A stretch of 64,000 nt of DNA from Ignavibacteria bacterium (GTDB taxonomy: Bacteria; Bacteroidota; Ignavibacteria; Ignavibacteriales; SURF-24): positions 8,000-71,999 of the forward strand of contig JBAXDX010000001.1 of assembly GCA_037140715.1 (NCBI GenBank), written 5' to 3'. The first letter of the stretch is position 1. Each line of letters opens with the position of its first letter. The notes beneath the pieces are model-generated. The model was not told where the DNA came from. It saw nothing but the letters and a program-made list of their open reading frames with translations, and ran no database searches. The position numbers and the translations under genes are program-made. Below are positions 1,027-58,900 of this stretch, piece after piece.

Positions 1027-1722
1027 CTAGGAAATAACCGGAGGAACGGGCGGGTCAGTTGGTTTTTCATGCCTTATTCCGAGGTTTTTAATGGTTTTTA
1101 TTGCCTGATACTCTTTGTACATTGCTTCATTTTCTGTTCTGAAGGGGATCATGCTTTTGTCAAGACTTTTTCTGATAAACATTCCAGTTGTGCTGACTTT
1201 CTCAAAAATTTCTTTTCGCATTGCTTTTTTCTCACCCTGGCTGAGTTCGCGTTTGCCGAGAGCGGATTTATAGAGTCCAAGCAGATCTTCGATTTCTGTA
1301 AGTTTTGGCAGGTCATATTCGTAAACAACAAGGCCGGCAAGGTTATCTTTTGCGGCATCAATAATACTTTTTGAGCTGTTGTAGAGATTCATTTCCGTCA
1401 TTTCCTGGAAAACGGATAAAGATTTATCGCAAAGAGCTTTTAGTTCCTCGCCTGCGATATCAACGCCAACTCCGTAAAGAGCACCGGACAAAGGGAACAT
1501 TACATCAATAAGATTTTTTGCAGCAGCCTTTTTGGCATTAGTTTTGCCTACAACGGCTTCGTCATAATTGCTTATCATATTTTCCACGGCAATGGCTTTT
1601 TCTTTAAAGGTTGTGAAAGCTGTGAGTACGGGAGGTTTGGTGGCAATAGTTGCTGCCCATTTCTCTATAAACTCCTGCATTGCCTGGTACATTACTACTT
1701 TTCTTTGAATTGACATATCCAT
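1027..1722 (-). CDS. hypothetical helical protein
   Basis: 231-aa ORF with AAGGAG-type RBS (aaaaaggagtagtaaaaATG) upstream of the start at 1722. No family recognised. Confidence 0.6.
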   Translation of the reverse strand: MDMSIQRKVVMYQAMQEFIEKWAATIATKPPVLTAFTTFKEKAIAVENMISNYDEAVVGKTNAKKAAAKNLIDVMFPLSGALYGVGVDIAGEELKALCDKSLSVFQEMTEMNLYNSSKSIIDAAKDNLAGLVVYEYDLPKLTEIEDLLGLYKSALGKRELSQGEKKAMRKEIFEKVSTTGMFIRKSLDKSMIPFRTENEAMYKEYQAIKTIKNLGIRHEKPTDPPVPPVIS

Positions 1723-1931
1723 TTTTACTACTCCTTTTTGAAATCAGGTATTTAAATGAGTCACTATTGTTTAGTACAGAACAATTTTTGCCTGTCCGAA
1801 ACAGGCGGAAGAACAGTTATTACGGGTTTGGACTAACATACTAGGTTCGGGGCGTTTTCAGGAAGACAAGAATCGAATATTAATGGCGGGGAAGATGCTG
1901 AAGGCGGATAAAAGCGGGTTCAGGATTGTTT

Positions 1932-2369
1932 TCCGGAGACTTCAGGTAGTCATCCGGAGAGTCAAGATTGTTTTCCAGGAACCCAGGATGGTCGTCCAGG
2001 AGCTTCGGATGGTCATCCAGGAGCTTCGGATGGTTTCCAGGAACCTCAGATAGTCATCCGGAGAGTCAGGATGATTTCCAGGAACATCAGATGGTCATCC
2101 GGAGAGTCAGGATGGTCATCCAGGAACTTCGGACAGTCATCCAGGAACTTAGGATGACTTCCAGGAACCTCGTACAGACAAAAGTGAGTTAATTTTTTCC
2201 TTCCAGAGACTTCGGATAAGCTTCCAGAGACTTCGGATAAACATCCAGAGACTTCAGATAAGCTTCCAGAGACTTCAGATAAGCTTCCAGGAACTTCGGA
2301 TAAGCTTCCAGGAACTTCGGATAAGCGTCCAGGAACTTCTGACAGACATCCGGAGGCCCAGGATGGCGT
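1932..2369. repeat. tandem array, about 21 units of 21 bp (consensus TCCAGGAACTTCGGATAAGCT)
   Basis: The TCC(A/G)G unit start recurs at 1932, 1953, 1974, 1995, 2016, 2036, 2057, 2077, 2098, 2119, 2140, 2160, 2202, 2223, 2244, 2265, 2286, 2307, 2328 and 2349. There are two sub-families (..GGATGGTCA vs ..GGATAAGCT) separated by one non-repeat 21-mer at 2181-2201. Confidence 0.9.
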
Positions 2370-2805
2370 TGGAATACCTGAAATAGAGCATAATTTCGCA
2401 ATATCAGGTATTTTGACACGAATTTCTCTTCTCAAGCTTACGATCTCATGTGGGATGAAGGGGGAATTTACACAAAAAGGGACAGAATCGGGGGAAGGGG
2501 AGTGTGAATGCCGTGTTAGTCCAAAATTTCAAAGAACTGCAGGGTGCCGGTCATTGTAACAGAGGTTCCTGCCATGAAACTATAGTTATAGATTCTGGTC
2601 CCAAGATATTACTTTGAATTTTCAGACGCAAGAGGGGAGAGTAATTTTTTTGAAAAAAAAAATGGCTGAGCTGTAATTTTTATGATTAAATGAGGGAGCT
2701 GTTATCTTTTGGATAACTTATTCTAAAGATTTACTGCCTGACATCAGCGGGAATGACTTCATTTTGTTCTGAAAAATAGCGGGACTATTGGAAATGAACA
2801 ATGCC

Positions 2806-5556
2806 CTAATAATAATATCCTATCGTAAAATAGAAAAACACAGGTCCTCTGGCGATGCGATTCCCATGTGATTTGTCCTGTCTGAATAAGAAACTGCGTC
2901 CAACGGAAAATTCCGCTGGGCCTAAAGGAGTGTCGAGTGAAAGCGTTGCACCGGCACCGTGCCTTAGGTCGGAGAAACGAATTAGTTCGCGGTTTACCCA
3001 ACTGGAGCCTAAGTCATAACGAAGTTTTAGGTAAGCGTCAAAAAATACTTTTAAAGGGATTCTGACACGGTACTCAAGCGAGGATAAGAATATTTGTCGT
3101 CCGCGGAATTCATAGTCGCGGAGTCCAAAAAATGAATTTTGCCCGCCAAATGAAAACTGTTGGCTTAACGGCAATGTGTTATCCGCAAAACCGATGGCTA
3201 CTCTGGGGCTGAATGAATGGACTTCATTTGAAGTAGTGATATGGCTTGTATAATCAAAATATATTTTTGTATAGCCAATGTCACTGACAAAGAGATTCTG
3301 CGCTGTTTCATAATATGCCTTAACCAGAAAACCCTTGTTCGGGAATGGGTATTTGTCCTGATTATCAATGGCAGATTGAACAGCCAGAGTAAAAATGTTA
3401 TTATTTTCGATAAAATTAAAATCGCGGATATTTGTGATTTTGCTATTCTGGTATTTTCCTTCAACTATCAGGTTGCCAAATTTTTCTGCCTGCATTCCAA
3501 ATCCCAATGAAAAACCTTTGTTTATCTGCTGGTATTCGGCGACCGAAAGACGATCGAATTTACCGCCTATTACAAGCGGGTTGTCCTCGTAGGAATATAT
3601 ATTATTAATATCATAGAAAGCGCGCAGTTTATAAGTCAGGTATGTCTGAAAAATTCTATTTGCTTTATGTTCAAGAATATAAGAACCATTGCGCTCGCCT
3701 CCTGAAATAATAAGTCCAAGCTCGGTGCCAGTGCCGACTAAGTTTTCATCACGGATATCGATGTTGCCCTGGACACGGTTTTCATTGTCAATCCTGAGTC
3801 CGAAACGTACAAGGCTCGACAGTTTTTCGGATACTTTAAGCTTCAGCGTATTTACTCCACCTGAATCGGACGATGTAAGTGAAATATCATTAAACAGATT
3901 TGTGCCCCGCAGGCTAGCGAGGCAGCCGTCAACTTTTTTATACTGAAAATAGTCGCCTGAATCAATAGGAAATTCTCTTTGTATAATACTGCGCTTTGTC
4001 TTCTGATTTCCATCAATCTCAATATTTAAGATTTTGCCTTCGGAGAATTTAAGGCTAAGGAGTCCCTGCCGGTTGTCGAAGTTTAGATTTTCAATTTCAG
4101 CCAGCGAATAACCGAGTCCGCGGTAGAGTTTAAGGATATTAAGGACAGTTAGATATATTTTTTCAATATTAAAAGGATTATTGAACAGCGGGGATAGCAA
4201 TGAATCAACCTTTGCCTGTTCAAGGAAAGTTATGCCTTCAACTGAGATTGCTTTGACGTATGGATTTTTCTTAGCGATAAATCTTATATGCGTCTGCCCG
4301 CTGTTTTCAGTTGCCGTCACATAAAGGCTGTCATAATCACCTGATTTATAAATATCGTTAAGGTCGTTAAGAATTTCGTGGTTGCTTACAGAATCCTTTT
4401 GTGAGTATTTATTAATAAGCTTTTTTTCAAACAGTTCGGTGTCATATCTGGAAGTAATGTTTTTGAGGAAAAATTCTTTCTCCTTAAGCTTGTTTATCGT
4501 TGTTTCTGCAATTTTTTTTTCAATTTTAGCAAGTAAAGGCAAAGTAGTTGTATAGCCTGCTTCTATGAGAGAATCGATATTTGAGAAGTCGGTATTTTTT
4601 CTTTTCCCCAGTTTGGGACTGATAACTACGTCTGCCATGCGCAGTTGCTGTTCGCTTAAGAGTCTCATTGGTATTGAAACAATCTGGCTGGCTACATTCC
4701 ATGGAGTTGCAAGTTCCAGTTGCGAATTAAGCGGGCTTGTGGTATTGAAAGCAATAACTATATCGTTGCCCGATTCGCGCGCAAGCTGGACGGGCACATT
4801 GGCTACAAGTCCGCCGTCAACGAGAAGCAGGCTGTCAATTCTTACAGGAGAAATAAATAATGTAACGCTTGAGCTTGCTCTCATTGCCTGACTGAGCGAG
4901 CCTCTGTCAAGAACGACTGCTTCGCCTGTAACGAGATTGGTGCAGACGGCTTTAAAATCAAAACGAAGTTCGTCAAAACCCGACTTAACGTGCAATGGCG
5001 CGTTAAGCGTTAACATGTTCAAATTGTTTGAAAATCTCTGCCCGTTATTTATAGATGTAGGTAGCACGACATGAAATCCTTCAAGGCGTAGCGTAACGAG
5101 CGCTTTATCTTCTGTTATTTTTTGCTCTACGAATAATTCATTTCTGCTTGTTTCGTCTGTCGATGTAAGAAATTCATTCCACGGCATAGCGCGAACAATT
5201 GAGTCAATTTCGTTTATGCTGTATCCTGCCGAGTATAATCCGCCAATAATGCTTCCCATGCTCGTCCCCGCAATTGAGCTGATCTGAATATTCTTTTCAT
5301 CTAATGCTCTGAGCACTCCAATTTGCGCCAGACTACGGGAACCGCCGCCGCTTAGAACGAGGGCAATCGAAGGTTCTATGGTTGAAATTTTTGCAGTAAG
5401 ACCAAAGGGAAGTTTTTTCTCTTTATACTGAAGACTGATAATTTTATTCGACTGGCAACAGACTCGGGACGGGCAGGCAAACAACAGGAAAAACAAAGGT
5501 GCTATTTTTAATAGCTTAAATATATTTGCCTGAAAGACTTTGTAAATATTTTTCAT
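2806..5556 (-). CDS. patatin-like phospholipase fused to POTRA/Omp85 beta-barrel (type Vd autotransporter, PlpD-like)
   Basis: 916 aa with a signal-like N-terminus. Patatin motifs are present: GGGSRS (oxyanion), GTSMGS (GxSxG) and VDGG (catalytic Asp). The C-terminal half is beta-rich and ends in aromatic residues (FTIGYYY), like Omp85/BamA barrels. Confidence 0.85.
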   Translation of the reverse strand: MKNIYKVFQANIFKLLKIAPLFFLLFACPSRVCCQSNKIISLQYKEKKLPFGLTAKISTIEPSIALVLSGGGSRSLAQIGVLRALDEKNIQISSIAGTSMGSIIGGLYSAGYSINEIDSIVRAMPWNEFLTSTDETSRNELFVEQKITEDKALVTLRLEGFHVVLPTSINNGQRFSNNLNMLTLNAPLHVKSGFDELRFDFKAVCTNLVTGEAVVLDRGSLSQAMRASSSVTLFISPVRIDSLLLVDGGLVANVPVQLARESGNDIVIAFNTTSPLNSQLELATPWNVASQIVSIPMRLLSEQQLRMADVVISPKLGKRKNTDFSNIDSLIEAGYTTTLPLLAKIEKKIAETTINKLKEKEFFLKNITSRYDTELFEKKLINKYSQKDSVSNHEILNDLNDIYKSGDYDSLYVTATENSGQTHIRFIAKKNPYVKAISVEGITFLEQAKVDSLLSPLFNNPFNIEKIYLTVLNILKLYRGLGYSLAEIENLNFDNRQGLLSLKFSEGKILNIEIDGNQKTKRSIIQREFPIDSGDYFQYKKVDGCLASLRGTNLFNDISLTSSDSGGVNTLKLKVSEKLSSLVRFGLRIDNENRVQGNIDIRDENLVGTGTELGLIISGGERNGSYILEHKANRIFQTYLTYKLRAFYDINNIYSYEDNPLVIGGKFDRLSVAEYQQINKGFSLGFGMQAEKFGNLIVEGKYQNSKITNIRDFNFIENNNIFTLAVQSAIDNQDKYPFPNKGFLVKAYYETAQNLFVSDIGYTKIYFDYTSHITTSNEVHSFSPRVAIGFADNTLPLSQQFSFGGQNSFFGLRDYEFRGRQIFLSSLEYRVRIPLKVFFDAYLKLRYDLGSSWVNRELIRFSDLRHGAGATLSLDTPLGPAEFSVGRSFLFRQDKSHGNRIARGPVFFYFTIGYYY

Positions 5557-5642
5557 GCCGTGTTGTAAACGATAAAAAAAGCCGGGCAGATATCATTGTT
5601 CAGAAAGCGAACCTGATAAACCATACGGCTTAAAAATATTAA

Positions 5643-7514
5643 TTATTTTCTTTTATTATTCTTCTGCTGATCTAGCTTCTGCGTGTGCGCGTTTTTTTCG
5701 GCGGCTTCCATCATGCGATGCATAAATCCGCCCGATTTCTTCGGATTTGCAACCGGTACAAGTTCCATGTCATTTTTCGAATTATTAACATAGTACTGCT
5801 GAATGATCGAGAACAAATTGAACATGAAATAATAAAGATTAAGTCCGGATGGAAATCCCATAAACATAAGCGTAAACATAACAGGCATAATATAAACAAG
5901 AGCCGCCTGACTTGGATCCTTAACGCTCATCTTCTGCTGGAAGTACATTGTAATGCCAAGCAACAAGGCAAGTCCGCTCACCTGTTGAATGCCAAAAATT
6001 GGAATAGCGAATGGCAGAGTAAAAATAACATCGGGAGAAGACAGGTTAGTTATCCAAAGCGTAAAGGGTTGTTGCCTGAGTTCGATTGCAACGTTAAACA
6101 ATCCCCACAAAGCTACAAGTATCGGCATCTGGAGCAACATTGGCAAACATCCGCCCGCCGGATTAATTCCGTAGGTGGAGTAAAGCTTCATTGTTTCTTT
6201 GTTTACTTTCTGCGGATCGTCTTTGAATTTTTCCTTTAACTCTGTAATCTTCGGCTGAAGCTGTTGCATTTTCTTCATCGACTTAAAGCTACTTTTTGTA
6301 AAAGGATAAAGAGCAAACTTAATTATAAGCGAGAATACAATGATTACAATGCCATAGTTAGAGATAAACAAGTGCAGGAACCCGAATAACGGCAGAAGCA
6401 CATATTCTGATATTGGTCTGATAATTATCTTTAAGCCGAAGAGACTCCCAAAATCGACAATCTTTTCAAAGTTCTTACCGTAAGCTTTAAGTACGCTATA
6501 ATCAACGGGACCGATATAAATTAAAAATGAATTAGTTTGAATGCTTGTATTGTTAAAAGGAACCTTAAGCCCTGCGCTGTAATACTTTCTGACACCAAGA
6601 TCGTTGCCTGCATGCTTTTCAGTTCCTTCGATGTATGCGCCGCCTTCGTTGCCAGGGTTTTGGGGAGCGATAATTACTGCAAAATATTTATTTCTGATAC
6701 CGATCCAATCTACTTTGCCGTTAATTTCTTTTTTTGCCGGTTCATTGACCTTAACATTAACAATTACCTGTTCATCGCCCGAATAAGCGCTGGAGTTTGA
6801 GTAAGTTGCTTCATCTACTGAGTTCTTCTCAACGAAATTAATTCCATTAGCCCAGACAAGGTTGTAGTTATCATTGCTTATGATCTTTTCCATATTATTC
6901 ATCTGAACATCGCAGCGAACGGCGTAGTCGTTGCCTTTGAATACAAAGTTCTTTGTAATCGAGCTATTCTCATATACGCCAACGCTATATTTAAGAACGA
7001 GTGAATCAGCGTTGTTTAGCTTATAATAGTTTTTATCAAGATTTGAATTAAAGGAGGCATCAGCCGTATTAAGAAGCTTTCCATCCTTTGTAACAAAGGC
7101 CAGGTTCAAATCGCCTTCATCTGAGTTAATGAGATCGATATGCTGAGTGTAAAAATTATCTTTATTCTTTGGAAGATATGCGTACCATGTCTGATATTTC
7201 TTAAGAAACCATCTTCTTATTTTAGCTCCCTTGCTTGTCATTTCAAGCTTAACAAGATTATTTTCAATAGTAATAACCTGTTCCTTTTCCTGAGATGAAG
7301 AGAAAGCGCTACCTATGGATGAAGAATCAGAAGAAATATTATTCTGAGCGGGAACGTTGCCGGTATTCGGTTTTGAAGTCTGGTTGTTTGTTCTGACCAG
7401 AGTAGAATCGGCCATTTTTTTTATAGCTGGTTGTGGTTCGGGCGAGTTAAAATAAAGCCATATAATAAGTATAGCTCCAATTAAGACGAAAGCAATAGTT
7501 GTCTGTTTATCCAT
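5643..7514 (-). CDS. yidC: membrane protein insertase YidC
   Basis: 623 aa with an N-terminal TM helix, a large periplasmic domain and the conserved C-terminal 5-TM core (..PMLLQMPILVALW..). It sits in the rnpA-yidD-yidC context. Confidence 0.95.
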   Translation of the reverse strand: MDKQTTIAFVLIGAILIIWLYFNSPEPQPAIKKMADSTLVRTNNQTSKPNTGNVPAQNNISSDSSSIGSAFSSSQEKEQVITIENNLVKLEMTSKGAKIRRWFLKKYQTWYAYLPKNKDNFYTQHIDLINSDEGDLNLAFVTKDGKLLNTADASFNSNLDKNYYKLNNADSLVLKYSVGVYENSSITKNFVFKGNDYAVRCDVQMNNMEKIISNDNYNLVWANGINFVEKNSVDEATYSNSSAYSGDEQVIVNVKVNEPAKKEINGKVDWIGIRNKYFAVIIAPQNPGNEGGAYIEGTEKHAGNDLGVRKYYSAGLKVPFNNTSIQTNSFLIYIGPVDYSVLKAYGKNFEKIVDFGSLFGLKIIIRPISEYVLLPLFGFLHLFISNYGIVIIVFSLIIKFALYPFTKSSFKSMKKMQQLQPKITELKEKFKDDPQKVNKETMKLYSTYGINPAGGCLPMLLQMPILVALWGLFNVAIELRQQPFTLWITNLSSPDVIFTLPFAIPIFGIQQVSGLALLLGITMYFQQKMSVKDPSQAALVYIMPVMFTLMFMGFPSGLNLYYFMFNLFSIIQQYYVNNSKNDMELVPVANPKKSGGFMHRMMEAAEKNAHTQKLDQQKNNKRK

Positions 7515-7738: not shown

Positions 7739-8136
7739 TATAAACTGCCATTTATTTTCTTTAGAAGATCAGTAAGTGCAGGCATAATATCAACAAGCTT
7801 AATAAGCTTATTTTTTATCTGGCTTAAATTGCCGGGAGAAAATACAATACGCACAAAAAACTTTTCCTCCTTATTATTTAAGTCAATTAAATGCTTGTTT
7901 AACCGGAAAGATTCCCTGATCAGGCGCTTAACTCTGTTTCTCCAAACAGCATTGCCTGCCCTTTTAGAAACTGCCGCGGCAATTTTAATCTTTCCTTCTC
8001 CGGCATTTCCCTCAATAATATAGACAGCTTTAAGTTTCTGATTGCCAGAGTAAGCTGTCTTTCCTGCTGAGTAAATTAACTTAAAGTCCTTTTCACTTTT
8101 GATTCTTTCATCTTTAGAAAGACCAAATTTTTTCAA
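7738..8136 (-). CDS. rnpA: ribonuclease P protein component
   Basis: 132-aa basic protein with the AV.RNR.KR..RE motif ([16 protein letters not shown]), directly downstream of rpmH. Apparent TTG start. Confidence 0.9.
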
Positions 8137-8696: not shown

Positions 8697-10925
8697 TTGT
8701 GCGAAACCAGGAACCCAATGGCCAGGAAGTTTTCATTTTATTTTTTGTTTATTGGTATTTGTATCACAACGGTGTGGTATGTCCTGAATACAGGGAATAA
8801 GCCTGAGAATAAACCGTTCTCCAGTAGAGCAGATATTCAGACAGAAAAAACAATTGCAAATGTTCCTGCCGCCACTAAAGAAAATAATTGGTTCATTAAT
8901 TCATTTCATGAACTCACTAAAAGTGTCCGGCATCCTTTAAGTATATTAATTTTACAAATTCTTGTAATAATGGTATTTGCAAGGATTATGGGTCTGCTTT
9001 GTCTTTTTATAAATCAGCCTGCTGTGGTTGGTGAAATATTTGCCGGTATCATTTTGGGACCATCTCTCTTTGGGATATTTTTCCCTGGACTTTCGACCTT
9101 CTTATTCCCGCCTGCATCTTTGAATAACTTACAGTTCCTAAGCCAGCTCGGCTTGTTGCTTTTCATGTTCATCATCGGGATGGAGCTTGATGTAAAAAAG
9201 ATTAAGAGCAGAGCCAGCGATGCTCTGATAGTAAGTCATACAGCGATTGCTTTTTCCTATTTGCTTGGGGTGCTGGTTTCCCTCTATCTGTATCATGAAT
9301 TTGCCGCCGGCGATATACCCTTCTTTTCTTTTGCTCTATTTATGGGAATTGCAATGAGTATTACCGCTTTTCCTGTACTTGCGAGGATAATTCAGGAAAA
9401 GGGACATTCAAAGACTCCGCTTGGTGTTTTTGTGCTTACATGCGCTGCTGTGGACGATGTTACGGCCTGGTGTATTCTGGCTGTTGTAATAGCAATTATC
9501 AAGGCGGGTACTATATTAAATTCTCTGTTTACAATCGCGCTTGTCCTTGTCTATGTTTTTTTTATGCTCAGGGTGGTTCATTCGTTGTTGCAGAAAATCG
9601 GGAAAGTTTATATTTCCAAGGAAAATATGAACAGAACCGTAGTAGCTCTGGTTTTTCTCATACTTCTCTTATCATCCTATACTACCGAGGTTCTGGGCAT
9701 TCACGCTTTATTCGGAGCTTTCCTTGCCGGGGTCGTAATGCCGGATGATTTTGAATTTAAGTCGATAATATCTGAGAAGATTGAGGATATCAGTCTCGTT
9801 ATGCTTCTTCCATTGTTCTTTGTATTTACCGGGTTGAGAACTCAGATCGGGCTTATTAACAGTCCTCGTCATCTGCTCATCTGTCTGTTTATAATAGTAG
9901 TAGCAATTTTTGGGAAATTAGGCGGAGCCACACTCGCGGCAAGGTTTGTAGGACAGTCCTGGAAGAATTCCGTTTCAATTGGTGTACTAATGAATACGCG
10001 GGGACTTATGGAGCTTGTTGTTTTGAATATAGGGTATGACCTTGGCGTTCTTCGTCCTGAGATATTTACAATGATGGTGATTATGGCTGTAGTTACAACG
10101 GTCATCTCCGGTCCGTTGCTTGGAGTTGTAAATAAAATATTTGGAGAAGATAATAAAAGTATCTCCCCGCTTAATGATGGCAAAAAGATACTGATTTCCT
10201 TCGGCAATCCTAAAATGGGAAGCGTGTTGCTCCGGCTTGCAAATTATCTGACATCAAACCATAACGGCATATCCGGCATTACAGCCCTTCATATTACTCC
10301 CCGCTCCGAAATTAGTATACAGGATGCACAGGTTTATGAAATCGAGAGTTTTAGACCGATACAGCAGGCAGCGCGGGAGCTGGGCATCCGTATCGACACT
10401 CTTTACCGCCCGGCGGGTAAAATCGAAAAAGAAATAGCACTTGAAAGCAGAAAAGACAATTACAAAATTATTCTTGCGGGTAGTGCGCGTTCAGTCTTTA
10501 ATAACAGCATTACCGGCGGTAAAATAAAATATATACTCGATGAGAGTGTGTGCAACGTTGGTATTCTCGTAAATAATAACTTCAGGGAAGTTAATAATTT
10601 GCTGGTAATTCTTCATCAGAAATCCGACCTGAATCTTGTAAAGTACGTTAACGATTTTATTGAAAACAGCGTGGCTAAAGTGCTGATTTTCGATCCTGGC
10701 CGTCTTGCTGAAGAATCCCGGGAACTAATAAATATGTTGCAAAAGAATCAGGCGGGAACGAATATAATAAATGACTTCCTGATAAATAAAGTAAACCTTG
10801 CACCTTTTGATTTAATCATCGTAAGTATTGACTACTGGCAGAAAGCCAGTGAGTTCGGCGGACAGATACTGCACAGCAATTCTTCTGTTCTAATTATAAA
10901 GACGGTACAAAAGAAACAGATATAA
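8697..10925 (+). CDS. cation:proton antiporter (CPA2/Kef-type) with long cytoplasmic C-terminal domain
   Basis: 742 aa with about 12 TM segments and Na+/H+ exchanger family motifs (..GEIFAGIILGPS.., ..NTRGLMELVVL..). The ~250-aa soluble tail looks like a USP-like regulatory domain. The true start may be the internal Met at 8718. Confidence 0.85.
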   Translation: MCETRNPMARKFSFYFLFIGICITTVWYVLNTGNKPENKPFSSRADIQTEKTIANVPAATKENNWFINSFHELTKSVRHPLSILILQILVIMVFARIMGLLCLFINQPAVVGEIFAGIILGPSLFGIFFPGLSTFLFPPASLNNLQFLSQLGLLLFMFIIGMELDVKKIKSRASDALIVSHTAIAFSYLLGVLVSLYLYHEFAAGDIPFFSFALFMGIAMSITAFPVLARIIQEKGHSKTPLGVFVLTCAAVDDVTAWCILAVVIAIIKAGTILNSLFTIALVLVYVFFMLRVVHSLLQKIGKVYISKENMNRTVVALVFLILLLSSYTTEVLGIHALFGAFLAGVVMPDDFEFKSIISEKIEDISLVMLLPLFFVFTGLRTQIGLINSPRHLLICLFIIVVAIFGKLGGATLAARFVGQSWKNSVSIGVLMNTRGLMELVVLNIGYDLGVLRPEIFTMMVIMAVVTTVISGPLLGVVNKIFGEDNKSISPLNDGKKILISFGNPKMGSVLLRLANYLTSNHNGISGITALHITPRSEISIQDAQVYEIESFRPIQQAARELGIRIDTLYRPAGKIEKEIALESRKDNYKIILAGSARSVFNNSITGGKIKYILDESVCNVGILVNNNFREVNNLLVILHQKSDLNLVKYVNDFIENSVAKVLIFDPGRLAEESRELINMLQKNQAGTNIINDFLINKVNLAPFDLIIVSIDYWQKASEFGGQILHSNSSVLIIKTVQKKQI

Positions 10926-19226: not shown

Positions 19227-21863
19227 TCATAATCCAAAGCCCTGCATGGAAGGAATAAAAATAAATTCCAGTTTCCCTTTATCTCCGAGCGTTACCTTTA
19301 TTACAGTTCCATCAGTCTGGTTATCTCTAAGGAGAATCTGCGAGAGAGGATTTATCAGATAACTCTGTATAGTGCGCTTTAACGGTCTGGCTCCATAGGT
19401 TATGTTATAGCCTATTTCCGCCAGCCAGTCTTTAGCTTCGTTATCTATTTCAATCTTCAGATTTTTTGACTTAAGCAATCCGGTTACATGTTCGAGCTGA
19501 ATGTCCACAATCTCTCTAATCTCCGACTTGAGTAATGGCTTAAATAGTACTATCTCATCAACCCTGTTCAGGAATTCAGGGCGTATAGTTTTCCTCAGCA
19601 ATTCCGCAAGCTGTACCCGGAGGTTATCAAGAACGAATGGAAGCTCCTCTTCTGTTGTATTCTCCAGCTTATCCTGTATAATGTGCGAACCAAGGTTGGA
19701 TGTCATTATAATTATAGTATTTTTGAAATTTACAGTTCTGCCCTGATTGTCTGTAAGGCGGCCATCATCAAGCACCTGAAGCAAAATATTAAAGATGTCC
19801 GAATGAGCCTTTTCGATTTCATCCAGCAATACCACAGAATAGGGACGGCGTCTTACGGCTTCGGTCAACTGTCCGCCCTCTTCATAGCCCACATAACCCG
19901 GAGGCGCTCCGATAAGACGTGAGACGGAGAACTTTTCCATATACTCGCTCATGTCAATTCTGACCATTGCATGCTCATCATCGAAAAGAAAGTCGGCGAG
20001 GGCGCGTGCAAGTTCCGTTTTACCTACGCCCGTTGTACCGAGAAAGATAAAAGAACCGACAGGCTTATTAACGTCCTGAAGTCCGGTACGGCTTCTGCGG
20101 ATTGCATTTGACACGGCTGAGACAGCCTCATTCTGTCCGATTATTCTACGGTGAAGTTCCTCTTCCATTCTAAGAAGTTTGCTTCGTTCGCTCTCAAGCA
20201 TTCTGCTGACCGGAATGCCTGTCCATTTGCCCACTACTTCAGCGATATCCTCGGCATCGACTTCCTCTTTGAGCATTCTGTGCTGTTTCTGAATTTCTGC
20301 AAGTCCGAGTGATTCCTGCTTAAGTTTTTTCTCCAGCGAAGCTATTGTACCATAACGCAGTTCAGCGACCCTGCCAAGATCACCAGTACGCTCATACTGT
20401 TCCGACTGAAGTCTGGCAGTTTCGATATCGCTTTTCATTTTCCGAATGATCTGGATTTTATTTTTCTCGAGATGCCAGTGAATTTTAAGTTCCTTACGCT
20501 CATCGCTAAGACCGCGCAACTCACGGCTGAGGTCTTCAAGTCTTTTAGAATTATCATGGTCACGTTCGAGGGCAACCTTCTCAATTTCGAGCTGTTTAAT
20601 TTTTCTTTCCACCGCATCAAGTTCCTCGGGCATCGAGTCAATTTCAATTCTGAGTTTTGAAGCCGCTTCATCGATCAGGTCAATTGCCTTATCAGGCAGG
20701 AACCTGTCGGCGATATATCTGGCAGAAAGCTGAACAGCAGCAACAATAGCGGAGTCAGTAATACGCACGCCGTGGTGGACTTCATATCTTTCCTTGAGAC
20801 CGCGCAATATTGAGACAGCGTCTTCTTCGCCTGGTTCACCAACGAGCACAGGCTGGAAGCGGCGTTCAAGGGCGGCATCTTTCTCGATATACTTTTTATA
20901 TTCGTTTAATGTTGTCGCACCGATTGCATGCAGTTCGCCCCTTGCGAGGGCAGGCTTTAAGATATTTGCCGCATCCATTGAGCCTTGCGCGGCTCCGGCC
21001 CCAACCAGAGTGTGAAGTTCATCGATAAACAATATTATTTCGCCATTTGAATCCTGCACCTCTTTTATAACAGCTTTTAGTCTTTCCTCAAACTGTCCAC
21101 GGAACTGCGCACCGGCAACGAGTGCGCCTAAATCAAGGGCTATAATTTTCTTTGTCTTTAAGTTTTCGGGCACATCTCCGCTTATTATTCTGTGGGCAAT
21201 GCCTTCGGCAATGGCTGTTTTGCCAACTCCGGGTTCGCCTATTAATACAGGATTATTTTTCGTGCGGCGGGAGAGTACCTGGAGGACACGCCTGATTTCC
21301 TCATCACGACCAATGACGGGATCAAGCTTTCCTGTACGGGTAAGTTCATTTAAGTCACGCCCGTATTTTTTTAGTGACTGGTAAGTATCCTCCTGGTTCT
21401 GTGAAGTTACGCGCTGACTGCCACGAATATCCTTAAGGGCTGTAAGGATGGAATCTCTTGTAACACCATTATCGCGTATTAACTGCCCTGCCCTGCCGTC
21501 ATTAGCCACCATTGCAAGAAGCAGGTGCTCAGTTGATACAAATTCGTCCTTAAGCTTCTGTGCCTCATCGGTTGCCGCATCCAGTAAGCGGCCGGTTGTC
21601 TGCGACAGCTGCTGATTGCCGGCTCCGGCACCTGAGACCTTTGGCAGACGCTCGAGAAGTTCGTTTACTTTAAGTTTTATATGGTTAAGGTTTACCTCTG
21701 TTTTCCTCAGGAAGGAAACAGCAATACTATTATCATCCTGAATCATCGCGGCAAACAAATGTTCCGGTTCGACAATCTGGTTATTATAGTTTTGCGCAAT
21801 ATCCATTGCATTTTGAATAATTTCCTGCGCTTTTACTGTAAGTTTGTTTAAATTAAAAGCCAT
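19227..21863 (-). CDS. clpB: ATP-dependent chaperone ClpB
   Basis: Two AAA+ modules ([13 protein letters not shown]; [13 protein letters not shown]) separated by a long coiled-coil M-domain. ATG at 21863 is preceded by AGGTGAG; the ORF track extends to GTG at 21872. Confidence 0.96.
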
Positions 21864-21893
21864 AATTCTCACCTGTTAATCAAAGATTATTAC

Positions 21894-22214: not shown

Positions 22215-22331
22215 ATTGTAAACTTAACCTATACATTGATTATTTGCAAATCTTACAATATATTTTTGTAAGCGACTGAGCATCTGCCATTAAATCAGTT
22301 AATATTCACATTATCAGGCAGAAGAACCCAC

Positions 22332-23021
22332 AAATTTCGACCGCGAAACTGTTTGAATTCACCCCATACGAAAAAATTTCATCCCACAGCTATAATTTCC
22401 AGGCAATTGGACAGGCGCAACGGCCGCACAGCTTTAAATTTCGACCGCATACATATAAAATTTGACCGCATTGATTCTAAAATTCACTGCATTGAAAGAC
22501 GCGGCGGCCGTATGGATATAATTTTCCGCCGTTTGGATATAATTTTTCTTCGTTTTGATTCCGGCGGAGTTCGTTTTGCTCCCGGCTGAGAATGTTTCGT
22601 ATAAAATTTCATCTGCAGTGAGTGCGTCCGGCTTTGTTTCGATATAAAATTCAGCTGCTGCGACAGTAAATTGAAATGCTGTGCTGTAAAACAAAACCGT
22701 TTTACTTATAAATTTATTTTTTATGCTGTAAATTGAAAATGTTTCATGCCTGTTTAAAAATGTTTTAGTTCCGGCAAAGAATGATATGCCGGAAAGCGGA
22801 TTCGTTTTTGTAAAAGCAGACTTCGTTTTTCAAAAAACAGCACTTGTTTTGACAAAAAAAATCTTCGTTTTTAAAGATGCGGCGACTGCGATAGAATAAA
22901 TTTTTCTCGTTTTTGAAAAAAATGGATTCGTTTTTACAAAAGTAAACTCCGTTTTAACAGATGCAGCACGCGTTTTAGTAGAAATTCACTCCGTTTAGAT
23001 GTGAATTCGGATGATGAAAGG
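22332..23021. repeat. degenerate tandem array with strict 21-bp phase (about 33 units)
   Basis: CGTTT(T/G/A) starts at 22530, 22551, 22572, 22698, 22803, 22824, 22866, 22908, 22929, 22950, 22971 and 22992, all equal to 22530 + 21n. Related TGTTT/CGCAT/TGCTG cores fill other phase positions back to 22341. A/T runs alternate with the cores. Confidence 0.8.
22983..23021 (+). repeat. left copy of 39-bp direct repeat bounding the defence islet
   Basis: AATTCACTCCGTTTAGATGTGAATTCGGATGATGAAAGG matches 28318-28356 at 38/39 positions. Confidence 0.9.
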
Positions 23022-23753: not shown

Positions 23754-24854
23754 ATGAATTATTATGAAAAAATTAGAGAATTGACAAGAAACGTTCCAAC
23801 AACATTAGTGGACTTTAATTTACGTAGAGAACCGGCAAGAACGCCAACTCAGGCGTCTTCAAATTTTATAACAAACAAAGAACAAGGGGACTGGGCAGAA
23901 TATCTTATCTTCCGCGCAATTAATGAAACATCAAAGAATTTTGTAGCTGTAAAATATGGTAAATCAGATAATCTTGTCGCCGGCGAAGAAGGATTTGATA
24001 CTTTTTATCAATCTTTTCAAGAAGAACTTGATTCCATAGGTAAACGACCAGATTTATTAATATTTAAGAAAACTGATTTTGATGATAAGCTGGGAGTCAA
24101 CATTAGCAATATTCCATATCACCAAATTACAGAGTATGTTAAAAAAGCTATTGCCGGAATTGAGGTCAGGTCAAGCTCTTTTTTAATTGACCAGTACGAA
24201 GCTGAAATGCAATCGCGAACAGAACGGTTTACGAGAATTGCTTTAGAGCTCAGAGACAACATATTATCTGAATATCATGATATCCTTAATGTTTCACCAC
24301 GACAGAAATACATTTCCGTTTTAGAAGGTATTTCTAACGAAACTCTTAGTATTACGGATTTTAAAGTCCCTGGGTGGAAATCTTCGGACAGGCTTGTTCA
24401 ACTAAATAATCAGTTTAAGAACCTAAAAAAAGCAATTAAGGAAATTCAAAAGAGGGATTATCTTTCCATAACTCCCAAAGTAGAAGACATCAAAGTTGTT
24501 TATAAATGGATTGAAACTTTCAATGTACCTCATTTTTATTTCCAGGTTTTTTTTGATAAAGTCTATGGCATTTCCTTTGAGCATATTCTTGAAATAATAT
24601 CAGATACTGACAATGACGGCGTAATATTTTCAGTAGAAACAGATACAAAAAATCAAAATAAAACGACCATAAAAATAAATTCAAAAACCGGGGTTCAAAT
24701 AGCTTATAAGGTTGACGAACCAGACCATAAGAGTGTAAGAAAAGAAATAGAGCGGGGCAGATTGCTTTTTTATGTAAGCTTTAATGGAGGAACCGCTTAT
24801 TTAGATGTAGATAACCTAAAAAATATTTTAACACTAAGCGAAGAAGAATTTTAA
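23754..24854 (+). CDS. putative type II restriction endonuclease (PD-(D/E)xK-like)
   Basis: 366 aa. It contains ..KRPDLLIF.. followed about 35 aa later by ..GIEVRSS.., a PD...ExK/R-like nuclease core. Its stop overlaps the ATG of the adjacent methyltransferase by 1 nt (TAATG). Confidence 0.55.
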
Positions 24855-26452
24855 TGGCGTATATAAATGTAAATAATATTTCCGATGAAGTTGAACGAGA
24901 ATATTCGGCTTCCACGCCTGTTGAACATAGAAAAAAATACGCTCAGTTTTTTACCCCGCCGATTATTGCTGATCTGATGGCGACATGGATTATCGGAAAT
25001 AAGAAATTGGAAGTTGTTCTGGAGCCGGCTTTTGGGCTTGGCATTTTTTCGAGAACTCTACTTAATAAAAAGTCCGGTATAATAATTAACGGGTTTGAAG
25101 TTGACAAGAAAATCTATCAAAAATCATTAGACTTATATAAAAATGAAAAGAATATTTCTATTCAGTTCAAAGATTATATGTATAATGATTGGGAAAATAA
25201 ATACGATGGCATTATGTGTAATCCTCCATACTTCAAATTCCACGACTATGATAACAAGAATATTCTTAATGAGATAGAAGAAAAAACATCTTATAAACTC
25301 AACGGGTTTACAAATTTATATGCTCTTTTTCTTCTAAAGTCTATTTACCAGCTAAATGAGAACGGCAGAGCGGCTTATATTATTCCCTCAGAACTTTTGA
25401 ATTCTGACTATGGTAAAAAAGTAAAAAAATATTTAGTAGAAACTAAAACGCTAAGACATGTAATCATAATAGATTTCGAAGAAAACGTTTTTGATGGCGC
25501 ATTAACAACCGCATCTATACTCTTATTCGCAAATGATGATGAAGCTGCCAGCGTTCAATTTCATAATATTAAAAATGTCACCGCTCTTCACCCAATAAAA
25601 AAAATAATAGATGAATATCCGGACAATAAAACAAATTTATGTTCTATAAAAATTGAAGAGCTTAAACCAGCAATTAAGTGGCGGGCTTATTATCAGGAAC
25701 AAAATTATAAAAAATATAAACACTTCGTGCCATTTGGAACTTATGGAAAAGTAGTAAGAGGAATAGCAACCGGCGCAAATGAATATTTTACCTTTAATCC
25801 ATCGAAGGCAAAACAGTTCGGTATAAATCAGAAGTATTTATTGCCCTGTATATGTAAGTCTGTCGATATTAAGGGTTCTTTTTTTACAGAAATAGAATTT
25901 GAACAATTACAGAAAAATAATAAACACGCGTTACTTCTTAATGCTATCAACCCGATAGATGACTCTGTAAGGAAGTATATTTCAATAGGAGAAAAAGACG
26001 GGATAGATAAAAAGTTCCTGACTTCTCATAGAAATCCCTGGTATGCTTTAGAGAATAGACTGCCTGCGCCTATCCTGGTATCTGTTTTTAATAGAAACGG
26101 ATTGCGGTTTATTAGAAATGAAGCAGGTATCTCAAATCTTACAACCTTTCACTGTATGTATATAAACAAATACTTCATTCATAAAACAGACTTGCTCTTT
26201 GCTTATCTGCTTACCGATATTTCAAAAGAAATATTCGGAGATAACCGCAGAGAATATGGCAATGGTCTTCAAAAATATGAGCCGAATGATATAAATGGAG
26301 CAAAAATATTGGACTTAGAATTGATTGACTCCAAAATAGAAAAAGTAATACTGCAACTATTCAATAGTTATAGGGAATCAGTTCTAAACCGGCAGCCAAA
26401 TGATAATTATATCAAAGAAATAGAGACTCATCTTTTGAAAATCTTCTGCTAA
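24854..26452 (+). CDS. gamma-class N6-adenine DNA methyltransferase (TaqI/Eco57I-like)
   Basis: 532 aa with the order QFFTPP (motif X), LEPAFGLG (motif I) and CNPPYF (motif IV NPPY), then a long C-terminal target-recognition region. Confidence 0.9.
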   Translation: MAYINVNNISDEVEREYSASTPVEHRKKYAQFFTPPIIADLMATWIIGNKKLEVVLEPAFGLGIFSRTLLNKKSGIIINGFEVDKKIYQKSLDLYKNEKNISIQFKDYMYNDWENKYDGIMCNPPYFKFHDYDNKNILNEIEEKTSYKLNGFTNLYALFLLKSIYQLNENGRAAYIIPSELLNSDYGKKVKKYLVETKTLRHVIIIDFEENVFDGALTTASILLFANDDEAASVQFHNIKNVTALHPIKKIIDEYPDNKTNLCSIKIEELKPAIKWRAYYQEQNYKKYKHFVPFGTYGKVVRGIATGANEYFTFNPSKAKQFGINQKYLLPCICKSVDIKGSFFTEIEFEQLQKNNKHALLLNAINPIDDSVRKYISIGEKDGIDKKFLTSHRNPWYALENRLPAPILVSVFNRNGLRFIRNEAGISNLTTFHCMYINKYFIHKTDLLFAYLLTDISKEIFGDNRREYGNGLQKYEPNDINGAKILDLELIDSKIEKVILQLFNSYRESVLNRQPNDNYIKEIETHLLKIFC

Positions 26453-26720: not shown

Positions 26721-26922
26721 TCGCAAAAAAAAGCAGTCCCGGATTCAGAGGTAAAAGTACCGGTAAGATGCCCCAGGTATATAGAGAACTTTAAGCAGGA
26801 AGTCCTGAAACATGTCTGTGAATTACGAGGGGGTTATAGAAACACAACTAATTTTATTCATATGATTTACTTTGTGGCGGGTAAATTAAAGTATGATTAC
26901 CCACTATAAACAACATAGACCC

Positions 26923-46837: not shown

Positions 46838-46973
46838 TTACATTATCCCGTTTATTTTTTAAATACCCATAAAATTAAGTTAATAAATAACTAAAATCAA
46901 TTTAACTTTTATACTAATCAATTAATTTAGCAGCCTTACGCGAAATGCTCCGGTCGGAGCTGTGTCAGTCCTG

Positions 46974-47216
46974 CAATGCTGTCAGGTTAAGGTTCAAAAC
47001 TTTTATTGCGCCCTTTCAGGGCTTTTTGGGTTGTCGGGGAATTTATTTTTCACAGGGCGATTGCCCTGTGCTATTATATTTCGCCCTTTCAGGGCTGAAT
47101 CAGCCCTGAAAGGGCGAAATATATCAGCGATGGGCAACCAACCGCCCATCGAACAAAACAAAATAAAATCCATAAGCCCTACAGGGGCGCAATATGGTGT
47201 TAACCTGACAGCATTG
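46974..47216. mobile_element. 243-bp MITE-like palindromic element at the metH stop codon
   Basis: The 17-bp inverted repeats CAATGCTGTCAGGTTAA (46974-46990) and TTAACCTGACAGCATTG (47200-47216) are perfect. TCAGTCCTG flanks both sides (46965-46973 and 47218-47226). The interior is a nest of hairpins, e.g. TCGCCCTTTCAGGGCTGAATCAGCCCTGAAAGGGCGA. Confidence 0.7.
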
Positions 47217-53060: not shown

Positions 53061-53099
53061 CTTCAGAATAAATCTCTATATAGTAAACAATTATAAGTG

Positions 53100-53234
53100 G
53101 GTGTACGACAAATTATCCTCTTAATCATACTCATTTTCCCCTAAAGCGATTATGGGTAAGAGTATGATTAAGAAAATTACAGACCATCCATTGTTGTCGG
53201 GACTAACGGCCAAGAGGAGAATTTGTCGTACACC
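53100..53234. repeat. 135-bp nested palindrome (REP/MITE-like)
   Basis: The outer arms are GGTGTACGACAAATTATCCTCTT (53100-53122) and AAGAGGAGAATTTGTCGTACACC (53212-53234), matching at 22/23. The inner arms are TTAATCATACTC (53121-53132) and GAGTATGATTAA (53160-53171). Confidence 0.7.
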
Positions 53235-53310
53235 TAAATATCTCTGACATTTGATTTCTTCATTTTACACTCCCGGATGCATGTACTGTGCGTGCGGACG
53301 ATGGTTGTAT

Positions 53311-57244: not shown

Positions 57245-57480
57245 TGTTGATAAAGTGTTGATAATTATTAATTGTGAAACTATTTCACAATTCAGGCAAC
57301 ATGTTATCTACATGGCAAATATAATCTTATTTGTTTACATGGAATAGAAAAACTCAATAAGTCACTATTTTACAATAAGTTAACATATAAACATTAATGT
57401 TATCAATATGTTGATAACTATTTACTGACAGATGTTGCCTCTATAAATTATTTATTTTAAAATTTAAAATTCTTTTTTTT
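57245..57480. promoter_or_regulatory. oriC part 1: DnaA-box-like cluster plus AT-rich stretch upstream of dnaA
   Basis: TGTTGATAA at 57245-57253, 57256-57264 and 57409-57417. TTATCTACA at 57304-57312. TTATCAATA at 57400-57408. Each has 1-2 mismatches to TTATCCACA. An AT-rich tract spans 57440-57480. Confidence 0.6.
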
Positions 57481-57481
57481 A

Positions 57482-58900
57482 ATGTTAATAACTATGAATA
57501 TTACTGAAATTTCAAGCAACAATTCCAAAATGATTTGGAAAGAATGCTTAAAAATCATAAAAGAAAATGTCCCTTACATGACCTATAACACATGGTTTCT
57601 TCCTATAAAGCCAATCCTTCTGAACGGACAGTCGCTTAAAATACAGGTTCCGAACAATTTCTTTATCGAGTGGATTGACGGACACTATAATACTTTAATA
57701 AACAAGACTATCCACCAGGTTATTGGACTGGAAGCTGAACTTGTCTATATAATATCAGATGAAAATGATATACCTGAAATTGAACTTAGACGTGAAGAAC
57801 CCAGCCGCCATGAACCTGTTCAGACTGCAGTCATCGAAAAAGAGATTAAAAACGATAAACCTGAATTTGAAACATATCTTAATCAAAAATATACATTTGA
57901 TAACTTCATTAAAGGTGATGGCAACCAGCTTGCAAGAGCCGCCGCATTTGCTATTAGTGAAAATCCAGGTGAAACTTCTTTTAATCCCCTTTTTATTTAT
58001 GGTGGCGTAGGACTTGGCAAGACTCATCTTATTCAGGCAATCGGTAATAAAATTTTGAGTAATTATCCTCATAAAAGAGTTATCTATCTGTCGAGTGATA
58101 TATTTACTGTTGAATTTGTTGAAGCTGTACAAGCTAACAAGGTAAATGAGTTTTCAAATTTTTACAAAAAAATGGACGCGCTTATAATAGATGATATTCA
58201 ATTCCTTATAAATAAGGAAAAAACTCAGGACTTGTTCTTTAATATTTTTAATATACTTCACCAGTCCGGCAAACAAATCATTCTTTCAAGCGACAAACCC
58301 CCAAAAGACTTAAAAGGTCTAAATGAACGCCTTATATCCAGATTTCAATGGGGACTGTCAGCGGATATTCAGCCACCTGATTATGAAACGCGTTTTGCCA
58401 TATTAAAGAAAAAGAGCGAAAACTATGGAATTTATTTATCTCCTGATATATTGGAATATATAGCTATAAATATTACATCCAACATCAGGGAACTGGAAGG
58501 CTGTCTGATAAAGCTTCTGGCGAATACATCGCTTAGTTCCAAGGAAATTAATCTGGAAATGGCTAAAAAGACAGTTAAAGAGATAGCCACAGACAGAAAG
58601 GTAAATATTTCAATAGAATATATTACTAAAGTTGTCTGTGAGTGCATGAATGTAGAAGAAAACAAGGTCCGCGAAAAAAACAGAAAACAGGAAGTAGTAC
58701 TTGCACGGCAAATAGCAATGTACTTATCTAAAAAACTAACCAAGTCTTCGCTGAAAACCATTGGTCTTCACTTTGGCGGAAGGGATCATTCTACCGTTAT
58801 ACATGCATGTAATAATATTGAAGTTCTGTCAAATGAAGATATTGCGCTAAAAGACGTACTCGAATCTATCAGAAATAAGATTGAACTTAGCGTTGCTTAG
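57482..58900 (+). CDS. dnaA: chromosomal replication initiator DnaA
   Basis: 472 aa with the AAA+ Walker A GGVGLGKTHL, ..IDDIQF.., and the C-terminal DNA-binding domain ..GGRDHSTVIHA.. The start may be the Met at 57494. Confidence 0.97.
   Translation: MLITMNITEISSNNSKMIWKECLKIIKENVPYMTYNTWFLPIKPILLNGQSLKIQVPNNFFIEWIDGHYNTLINKTIHQVIGLEAELVYIISDENDIPEIELRREEPSRHEPVQTAVIEKEIKNDKPEFETYLNQKYTFDNFIKGDGNQLARAAAFAISENPGETSFNPLFIYGGVGLGKTHLIQAIGNKILSNYPHKRVIYLSSDIFTVEFVEAVQANKVNEFSNFYKKMDALIIDDIQFLINKEKTQDLFFNIFNILHQSGKQIILSSDKPPKDLKGLNERLISRFQWGLSADIQPPDYETRFAILKKKSENYGIYLSPDILEYIAINITSNIRELEGCLIKLLANTSLSSKEINLEMAKKTVKEIATDRKVNISIEYITKVVCECMNVEENKVREKNRKQEVVLARQIAMYLSKKLTKSSLKTIGLHFGGRDHSTVIHACNNIEVLSNEDIALKDVLESIRNKIELSVA

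Follow-up and report, generated by a model that had tools for sequence, protein, structure and literature searches.

What a 21-bp tandem array is doing in the 1083-bp gap between the stop codon of a patatin-POTRA-Omp85 gene and the start codon of a 231-aa ORFan, in an Ignavibacteria MAG, is the question raised by the locus described here. The array could be a gene or the remains of one, a set of sites bound by DnaA or by another protein, the template of an RNA, or non-coding repetitive DNA. We refer to the whole stretch of 64,000 nt that was analysed as the window, and coordinates are those of the window unless another contig is named.

Architecture of the array and its setting

Using TCC[AG]G as an anchor pattern, 20 unit starts were located from 1932 to 2349 at a spacing of 20-21 bp; unit anchoring and Tandem Repeats Finder together confirmed the 21-bp tandem array in two sub-families (1932-2349) described in an earlier note on this DNA. 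Tandem Repeats Finder called a left block at 1974-2168 (period 21, 9.4 copies, 73% matches, with a period of 41 also called) and a right block at 2200-2339 (period 21, 6.7 copies, 92% matches), the left array being degenerate and the right one more homogeneous. Units are spaced by 21 bp except for three 20-mers (at 2016, 2057 and 2140) and one 42-bp step. This step consists of a degenerate unit (2160-2180) followed by an unrelated 21-mer, AAAGTGAGTTAATTTTTTCCT, at 2181-2201, so that the 21-bp register is preserved across the spacer; the single unrelated 21-mer that had been said to split the two sub-arrays is thus real. Unit positions T1, C2, C3 and G5 are invariant, partly by construction since the same positions anchored the units, and C12, G14, T16 and C20 are nearly invariant, the others being variable. 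When up to 3 mismatches were allowed, the unit consensus found 13 matches in the 64-kb window (0.01 expected), all of them within the array. An independent Logan assembly of SRR7053541 was identical, base for base, to 1604-2203 and ended at 2203, the onset of the more perfect right array. The parts of the element and its neighbours are as follows, L021 and L022 being the two homologous loci described in the next section.

1889-1931, plus strand: leader of ~45 bp, made of about two degenerate units (GGGGAAGATGCTGAAGGCGGATAAAAGCGGGTTCAGGATTGTTT) and conserved, by alignment, in the left flanks of L021 and L022
1932-2180, plus strand: left sub-array of 12 units, consensus TCCAGGAACTTCGGATGGTCA, in which three 20-mers give rise to a 41-bp higher-order period and the last unit (2160-2180) is degenerate
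2181-2201, plus strand: internal spacer 21-mer AAAGTGAGTTAATTTTTTCCT, which keeps the register and, with the end of the preceding unit, matches L022 at 29/31 positions
2202-2348, plus strand: right sub-array of 7 units, consensus TCCAGAGACTTCGGATAAGCT, with 92% matches
2349-2369, plus strand: terminal degenerate unit TCCGGAGGCCCAGGATGGCGT, placed by unit anchoring and alignment with the homologues
2370-2440, plus strand: tail, GGATGG.ATGG.AATAC.T.AAA.AGAG ... TTTCGCA.T.TCAG..ATTTT, conserved in L021 and L022; the tail profile matches window 2361-2425
1027-1722, minus strand: ORFan of 231 aa, a neighbour outside the element, with its start codon 210 bp from the first unit
2806-5556, minus strand: patatin-POTRA-Omp85 gene, a neighbour outside the element and the last gene of a conserved rpmH-rnpA-yidD-yidC-patatin block
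5643-7514: YidC, beyond the patatin gene

An alpha/beta hydrolase is also among the neighbours in the window, and the ENA copy of the contig has no annotated gene in the gap. A database search with the ORFan returned the ORFan alone, and it falls in no Pfam or NCBIfam family. Its AlphaFold model, computed from the single sequence, is all-helical and unreliable (pLDDT 47). It has no homology to the protein encoded next to the L022 element. A CRISPR array was considered and rejected: the units abut, one 21-mer is the sole non-unit sequence, and no unique spacers lie between the repeats.

A conserved module in two genomic contexts

Scanning JGI metagenomes for two adjacent units yielded two contigs of one sample, L021 and L022, both of which carry the parts of the window element in the same order (leader, left array, spacer 21-mer, right array, tail), the order of unit subtypes being common to all three loci as well. 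In both contigs, the leader is ~45 bp long (AAAG.CGGACAAAAGT.GTTTCAGGATTATTT), the left array includes three 41-bp (21+20) super-units, the right array is short and the tail measures ~90 bp. A leader/spacer profile (six copies) matched window 1901-1940 and 2170-2210 and the equivalent sites of L021 and L022, and nothing else in the sequence searched; matches to the leader and tail profiles were likewise confined to the three loci in all sequence searched. The window tail carries a 12-nt inverted repeat (2373-2384 / 2401-2412) that its homologues lack.

The architecture is conserved and the number of units varies, from 20 in the window to 24 in L022 and 25 in L021, with sub-array numbers that differ per locus. 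Copy-number variation between strains, which the earlier note had proposed to look for, was found in the comparison of L021 with L022, both in the 42-bp super-unit (~6.5 vs ~3.5 copies) and in the right-array units (3 vs 5). These two contigs probably represent one locus in two strains, because L021 ends in 30 nt with homology to the 3' end of the L022 lysS gene. The L022 element is flanked by lysS and a 3'-5' exonuclease gene; the L021 element has a BNR/T9SS gene on its left. All three loci are intergenic. The window neighbours (patatin, ORFan) are unrelated to those of L021 and L022, and no remnant of lysS was found in the window gap. The copies seen amount to one in 72 kb of this genome and two contigs in the metagenome scan, in two independent genomic contexts.

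Relatives lack the array at this site. The nearest homologues of the patatin protein are 52-66% identical to it, and in five relatives (L024, L026, L028, L030 and L033) the rpmH-rnpA-yidD-yidC-patatin block is followed directly by a convergent gene of 177-181 aa. No 21-bp array was detected by Tandem Repeats Finder in L024, L026, L028 and L033, or by eye in L030, the search spanning 10 kb on each side for L024, L026 and L033. Conversely, tblastn found no trace of the convergent gene in the window gap. The window therefore has the array and the ORFan in the place of the relatives' convergent gene, which puts the element at a synteny break and marks it as lineage-specific.

Bracketing the array is a perfect 12-bp inverted pair, for which we estimate a chance of occurrence of ~0.002:

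1827-1838, plus strand: TTTGGACTAACA, left copy of the inverted pair and candidate terminal inverted repeat
2514-2525, minus strand: TTTGGACTAACA, right copy of the inverted pair and candidate terminal inverted repeat

A third exact copy of TTTGGACTAACA is found at 187-198 of L031, ~8 kb to the left of the window, within a ~190-bp element that has terminal inverted repeats of its own. A second copy of this ~190-bp element is present at window 53099-53237, and the element adjoins the end of an ISL3 transposase fragment. The copies of the 12-mer hint at a mobile-element origin. Neither L021 nor L022 contains the 12-mer, which also has no match to the ISL3 fragment end on the contig; comparison of leader with tail in L021 and L022 revealed no terminal inverted repeats, and no target-site duplication adjoins the window pair, the bases outside the 12-mers reading ..TTACGGG on one side and ATTTCAA.. 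on the other. Because the 12-mer is missing from L021 and L022, no target-site duplication is present and the 72 kb of this genome contain a single copy, we call the element modular and relocated, not a proven MITE. Neither 'dispersed' nor 'mobile' is a proven description of it, since the contexts number two and few copies have been seen.

Coding, RNA and protein-binding readings

Repeat-derived ORFs occur on both strands of the array, and the earlier note had regarded them as by-products of the repeat. Our results agree with this view. Ten array ORFs, four from the window and six from L021 and L022, are absent, by exact sequence, from a collection of 15 billion proteins, and array ORFs belong to no Pfam family. 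A six-frame chimeric protein query against 5.8 billion proteins returned none at E <= 0.01, in a search where low-complexity scoring may hide matches. Each locus has three to four 20-mers, which shift the reading frame. At every locus, five of the six frames contain 2-12 stops; the sixth has none in L021 but 4 each in the window and L022. Position entropy (0.78 / 0.64 / 0.82) gives no clear 3-periodicity, and across the three loci no ORF is intact and conserved over the whole element. It is because of the frame-shifting 20-mers, the stops, the absence of the ORFs from the protein collection, the empty gap in the annotation and the lack of any Pfam family that we read the element as non-coding.

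Against this reading stand weak signals in two frames, according to which the element would be, or once have been, coding. The first of them comes from frame +2 and the following ORF:

1883-2053, plus strand: candidate small ORF of 56 aa, MAGKMLKADKSGFRIVF RRLQVVI ... QELRMVSRNLR-stop, which starts in the leader and ends just past the first 20-mer

Its candidate peptide, MAGKMLKADKSGFRIVFRRLQVVIRRVKIVFQEPRMVVQELRMVIQELRMVSRNLR, has counterparts in L022 (7354-7629, minus strand, GTG start in the leader, 91 aa) and L021 (358-654, minus strand, internal ATG, 98 aa), and all three end with R-M-[VI]-S-R-[ND]-[LF]-[RG]-stop just after the first 20-mer. The unit reads as a coiled-coil-like heptad in this frame, [IV][QR][ER]L[RQ][MV][VI], and none of the ten leader substitutions among the three loci falls at codon position 2 (0/10), features that would suit a leader-started small heptad protein whose length is set by slippage. 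The second signal comes from frame +1, where the unit reads x-P-E-T-S-D-x, 55 21-mer units are without a stop, and the synonymous fraction (0.41) is the highest of all frames (0.12-0.37 in the others), as might be left by a decayed gene for a linker of such heptads. PETSD-like heptads are found in 334 library proteins (e.g. GPGTTDK x ~30 in P0124), and in L014, one of the Bacteroidales arrays described below, the same unit reads IRKLRMT x 11 and is fused to an HTH_38 fragment.

These signals are in conflict with one another, since nearly all variation among units is non-synonymous in frame +2 (synonymous fraction 0.12). Furthermore, the small ORF leaves out the spacer, the tail and over half of each array, which are conserved nonetheless; the L021 leader has a stop in place of the start, and inspection by eye of the sequence preceding the ORF starts revealed no Shine-Dalgarno sequence. 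The PETSD frame, for its part, lacks a start codon up to the right array, and it is broken by the 20-mers and by leader stops in two of the three loci (TAA in the window, TAG in L021); moreover, PETSD-like heptads are frequent both in genuine low-complexity linkers and in spurious array ORFs. The evidence for the ORF at 1883-2053 is weak, and it is probably a by-product of the repeat. Overall, ancestry from a coding repeat is possible and present-day coding unlikely, and we hold it improbable that either form of the coding explanation is the correct one.

We next consider an RNA. A sponge RNA of the CsrB/RsmZ type would present GGA in a unit hairpin, CAUCC-AGGAACUUC-GGAUG, and sequester an RNA-binding protein. 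The plus strand of the array carries 28 GGA and folds better than shuffled sequence (z = -3.8) and than the minus strand (z = -2.0), and some units contain CAGGAUG, the CsrB repeat. However, tandem units with short palindromes in them can be expected to fold better than shuffled sequence, and the minus strand, on which TCC is read as GGA, has nearly as many GGA (21). Counts of A(N)GGA across the three loci (16, 7 and 14) are not conserved, at least 4 of the 5 hairpin pairs can form in 6 of 18 window units only, and the would-be loops of the right array read AGAGA instead of AGGA. Pairing in the unit hairpin is 73% on the plus strand vs 78% on the minus strand, such that G-U pairs give no strand bias. 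Rfam yielded nothing at gathering scores (one chance-level match, E=3.8), neither tRNA nor tmRNA was found, the tail has no conserved fold (-2.85 kcal/mol), and no conserved promoter or terminator was found. A CsrB-like sponge is thus not supported, and we consider it less probable still than a coding origin.

Binding by DnaA had been put forward in the earlier note on the grounds that TTCGGATAA is repeated in phase in the right sub-family and matches the complement of the DnaA box at 7/9 positions. The repetition and the match are both real, but the string is present in four copies and not in about six, two units reading TTCAGATAA. GGATAA is found in 4 right-array units, whereas the left array and L021/L022 mostly have GGATGG, GGATAG or GGATGA; the DnaA-like motif is therefore absent from the left array and from most L021/L022 units. 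The array lies ~55 kb from dnaA (57482-58900, in a dnaA-dnaN-recF span at 57.5-61.5 kb), and in having repeated short motifs near the origin region it resembles the DnaA-box clusters of oriC and datA. Yet, with no more than 1 mismatch allowed, matches to TTATCCACA are concentrated beside dnaA (57245-57417 and 58902-59060) and read TTATC[CA]ACA or TTATCTACA. Within 1932-2369, no unit matches the DnaA box (TTATCCACA / TTATNCACA) at this threshold, and the array string TTATCCGAA departs from the box by two mismatches that both fall in the ACA end kept by all real boxes. Since the real boxes of this genome lie elsewhere and the array motif fails their consensus, we reject titration of DnaA; a datA-type array is, in our judgement, almost certainly not what the locus is.

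A phased array for another protein is easier to entertain. Such a protein would read TYCRG half-sites and polymerise along them, in a parC centromere, an iteron set or a titration array, and the spacer would part two blocks of sites; in parC of plasmid R1, a spacer separates two binding blocks. Consistent with this proposal, TYCRG half-sites occur twice per 21-bp unit, the unit has the invariant and nearly invariant positions given above, the 21-bp period corresponds to two helical turns with a register kept across the spacer, and the spacer is conserved (29/31). An array of a Thermoanaerobaculia MAG (L005) and the 22.3-kb region of the window also keep strictly to a 21-bp register, in which a small core is conserved and the remainder varies. 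The latter region had been linked to the array by the earlier note: TTCGGATG, near 23006, and the 21-bp period are indeed there, but homology is not demonstrable, the likeness being limited to a short CTTCG-like core and the register. On the other side, the neighbours of the three loci include no partition or replication gene and no recognisable DNA-binding gene, half-sites are spaced by 9 and 12 bp and not by 10.5, the 20-mers make the phase drift, no binding partner can be named, and part of the invariance of T1, C2, C3 and G5 comes from the anchoring. Binding of this kind is therefore, to our mind, an unlikely explanation. Plasmid iterons and a parC centromere in the strict sense were rejected, as there are no adjacent rep or par genes and none of 72,556 plasmids had an array match.

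Our preferred reading, to which we give a probability of about 55%, is that a modular minisatellite element, non-coding and specific to the lineage, extends over ~1889-2440 with the array as its core. Leader, array A, fixed 21-nt spacer, array B and tail would be inherited and relocated as a single unit, while replication slippage or unequal recombination would change the number of units, the 41-bp (21+20) and 42-bp super-unit blocks being amplified together. The element probably has no dedicated cellular function; by analogy with the BrickBuilt element discussed below, it may happen to provide the adjacent ORFan with transcription signals or to displace them. Further observations weigh against this reading. 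The spacer 21-mer and the leader are better conserved than a neutral relic might be, and the arrays of other phyla, some of which keep a strict register and core (L005), hint at constraint. The binding-array, heptad-ORF and RNA readings jointly account for roughly a third of the probability. Seen from another side, it is unlikely that the element is a functional locus of which each genome has one or a few copies, be it a slippage-tunable gene for a small heptad protein or one of a class of 21-bp-phased arrays read by a conserved DNA- or RNA-binding factor, a class whose other members could be the arrays at window 22.3-23.0 kb and those of Thermoanaerobaculia, Bacteroidales and Treponema.

Under the modular minisatellite reading, the value of the element lies mainly in annotation and genome dynamics. 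It marks a synteny break beside an ORFan, breaks short-read assemblies and yields spurious ORFs, and it offers a ready-made VNTR marker for strains of an uncultured Ignavibacteria lineage. Its import would be larger if the 21-bp register across sites and phyla reflected a shared binding factor, or if the leader-started small ORF were expressed.

Similar arrays and known systems

A scan of 185,579 species genomes identified 21-bp arrays with the core TCCGGAAACTTCGGAT in two Bacteroidales MAGs (Dysgonamonadaceae and Prevotellaceae) from one termite-gut study (L009, L012 and L014) and in the Thermoanaerobaculia MAG (L005), where the core is conserved in a strict 21-bp register; a related unit was found in a Treponema MAG of the termite study (L013). 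These arrays resemble that of the window in their 21-bp period, intergenic position, 16-17/21 unit positions and x-P-E-T-S-D-x frame. In contrast, their flanks have no homology to the window leader or tail. Much of the likeness across phyla was enforced by the search pattern, so that the free positions alone count as independent evidence. The arrays may be convergent or may descend from coding heptads, and the cross-phylum link is to be taken as a lead only.

Viral contigs gave no match to either pattern. The sole phage match, a 77-nt likeness between the terminal repeat of Citrobacter phage CR8 and the 21-bp units, was judged to be due to chance, as were single matches inside genes of Rhizobium, Sphingopyxis, Streptomyces and others and a match in Clostridiales (L002), which falls in the disordered linker of a real 322-aa protein. 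A literature search with the unit sequence and with '21-bp tandem repeat' returned nothing relevant.

Among known systems, the pneumococcal BOX element is built as boxA-boxB(n)-boxC. Its boxB units are 45 bp long, each genome has over 100 copies, and the RNA folds predicted for it are stable. The window element resembles it in having conserved end modules around a tandem middle module of variable number; 45-bp units, copies in excess of 100 and stable folds are features of BOX, and none of them was shown for the window element. PgRS / MITE464 of P. gingivalis, a dispersed element with 41-nt tandem repeats, recalls, by its description, the 41-bp higher-order period seen here. Unlike in PgRS, however, whose flanks are themselves repetitive, the 41 bp of the window element are a 21+20 dimer of one unit.

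The closest parallel in organisation that we can draw is with BrickBuilt of Porphyromonas gingivalis, a 23-nt minisatellite without spacers that is framed by leader and tail sequences which are not repetitive (Klein et al. 2015, PMC4596501). BrickBuilt is always intergenic, varies in copy number, has imperfect units with conserved and variable positions, and breaks assemblies (PMC4596501). The hypothetical ORFs that it overlaps are not expressed, and its promoter activity faces out of the leader (PMC4596501). Nineteen copies are present per genome, and their terminal inverted repeats are IS5-like (PMC4596501).

The window element resembles BrickBuilt in its short tandem units (21 nt here, 23 there), leader and tail, intergenic position, variable unit number, spurious ORFs and assembly breaks. 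Comparison by eye with the published consensus revealed no sequence homology between the BrickBuilt unit AGAYCATARTATCCTCTCRTRTG and the window unit TCCAGGAACTTCGGATGGTCA, or between the GAGACCTTTGCA terminal inverted repeats and the window flanks. Unlike BrickBuilt, the window element has two arrays, a fixed spacer and 20/21 super-units, and its terminal inverted repeats are candidates only. The phyla of Porphyromonas and of the Ignavibacteria both belong to the FCB group. If the element is indeed a modular minisatellite, it would extend the BrickBuilt/BOX type to a second phylum of this group.

Gene order around dnaA and rpmH

Clusters of DnaA boxes (TTATCAACA, TTATCTACA and TTATCCACA) were found at two places in the window:

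57245-57417, DnaA-box cluster on one side of dnaA
58902-59060, DnaA-box cluster on the other side of dnaA

Because these clusters flank dnaA on both sides, they suggest that oriC is located at this gene. In L033, a relative that carries rpmH-rnpA-yidD-yidC-patatin without the 21-bp tandem array of window 1932-2369, dnaA and rpmH are divergent neighbours with 430 bp between them; in the present genome the two genes are separated by ~49 kb (8.7-57.4 kb), a stretch that includes restriction-modification genes, clpB and sensor kinases. Between recF and gyrB, at 61909-62013, lie three 21-bp units, each of which contains the palindrome ATCGGTTCCGAGCCGAT, and a direct repeat of TTTTTCGTAACATGAGTTACA is present on both sides of these units.

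A 21-bp-phased region at 22.3-23.0 kb

Another stretch organized with a 21-bp period lies in a 1.9-kb gap between two loci:

19227..21872, minus strand, clpB
22321-23013, 21-bp-phased region
23754..26452, AccI restriction-modification pair

It comprises ~33 successive 21-bp units which, despite wide divergence in sequence, keep an exact register with zero indels, and whose conserved core reads Y|G(T/C)TT (e.g. CTTC|GTTTT). Column information at period 21 amounted to 0.37 bits; shuffled sequence gave 0.065 +/- 0.012, and the other periods from 15 to 29 all fell within 0.03-0.14. Many stops are found throughout this region, which is thus non-coding.

Insertion-sequence remnants, a MITE-like element and an Acido-Lenti-1 RNA

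Several traces of small or mobile elements were observed in the window and in L031, the stretch lying ~8 kb to its left on the same contig:

26830-26922, 93-nt fragment of an ISL3-family IS, covering the transposase gene's 3' end and the IS end (..CATAGAGCC)
47051-47096, Acido-Lenti-1 RNA (45.3 bits)
53099-53237, MITE-like small element

The 93-nt fragment is 99% identical to this ISL3-family sequence, which is also represented at L031 1-137; the full contig terminates within another copy of the IS. The MITE-like element (140-190 bp) is present in two copies, the second at L031 160-346, that are 86-88% identical to one another and bear the terminal inverted repeats GGGTGTACGACAAATT.TCCT.. / ..AGGAGAATTTGTCGTACACC. 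The L031 copy also contains the 12-mer TGTTAGTCCAAA which, as an inverted pair, brackets the array.

The Acido-Lenti-1 RNA was the sole Rfam match at gathering score within the window. The ~240 nt around it (46973-47216) are 84% identical to positions 10670-10897 of L022, a metagenome contig that also carries a homologous array and whose positions 10589-10614 are similar to the terminal inverted repeat of the MITE-like element.

21-bp units in a phage and in other phyla

The annotated terminal repeat of Citrobacter phage CR8 (HG818824.1) contains, at 178-254, 21-bp units, AGACTTCTAGATAACCTCTAG, that share 81% identity with the right sub-array (2202-2348) across 77 nt (E = 3e-5); this likeness was judged to be due to chance, amplified by repetition.

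Arrays with a 21-bp period were also observed in metagenome-assembled genomes from other phyla:

L005 (Thermoanaerobaculia), 6344-6727, ~20 units
L014 (Dysgonamonadaceae), region 4386-5634, containing an array of 11 units of the TCCGGAAACTTCGGATGACAA type
L013 (Treponema), 7-979 and 7757-7990, several neighbouring arrays
L009 (Prevotellaceae), 5-634, several neighbouring arrays

The Thermoanaerobaculia units follow a strict 21-bp register that conserves TG|TCCG(G/A) and ..AACTTC and leaves the remaining 9 nt free; in one frame the array forms an ORF of 154 aa made up of C-P-x-x-S-x-x heptads. This array adjoins the 3' end of a gene (6728..7327, minus strand) whose product, judged by eye only, looks like an XRE-type HTH protein. 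The neighbouring arrays in Treponema and Prevotellaceae differ from one another in unit sequence, and both groups also include 35- or 42-bp arrays. The Dysgonamonadaceae array stands directly 3' of an HTH_38 (IS30-like) reading frame that is truncated; read in that frame, the array translates as IRKLRMT x 11. A fragment of a reverse-transcriptase gene lies ~450 bp upstream of the array, and its best match was to Drt3a (E = 6e-14, under the family cut-off).
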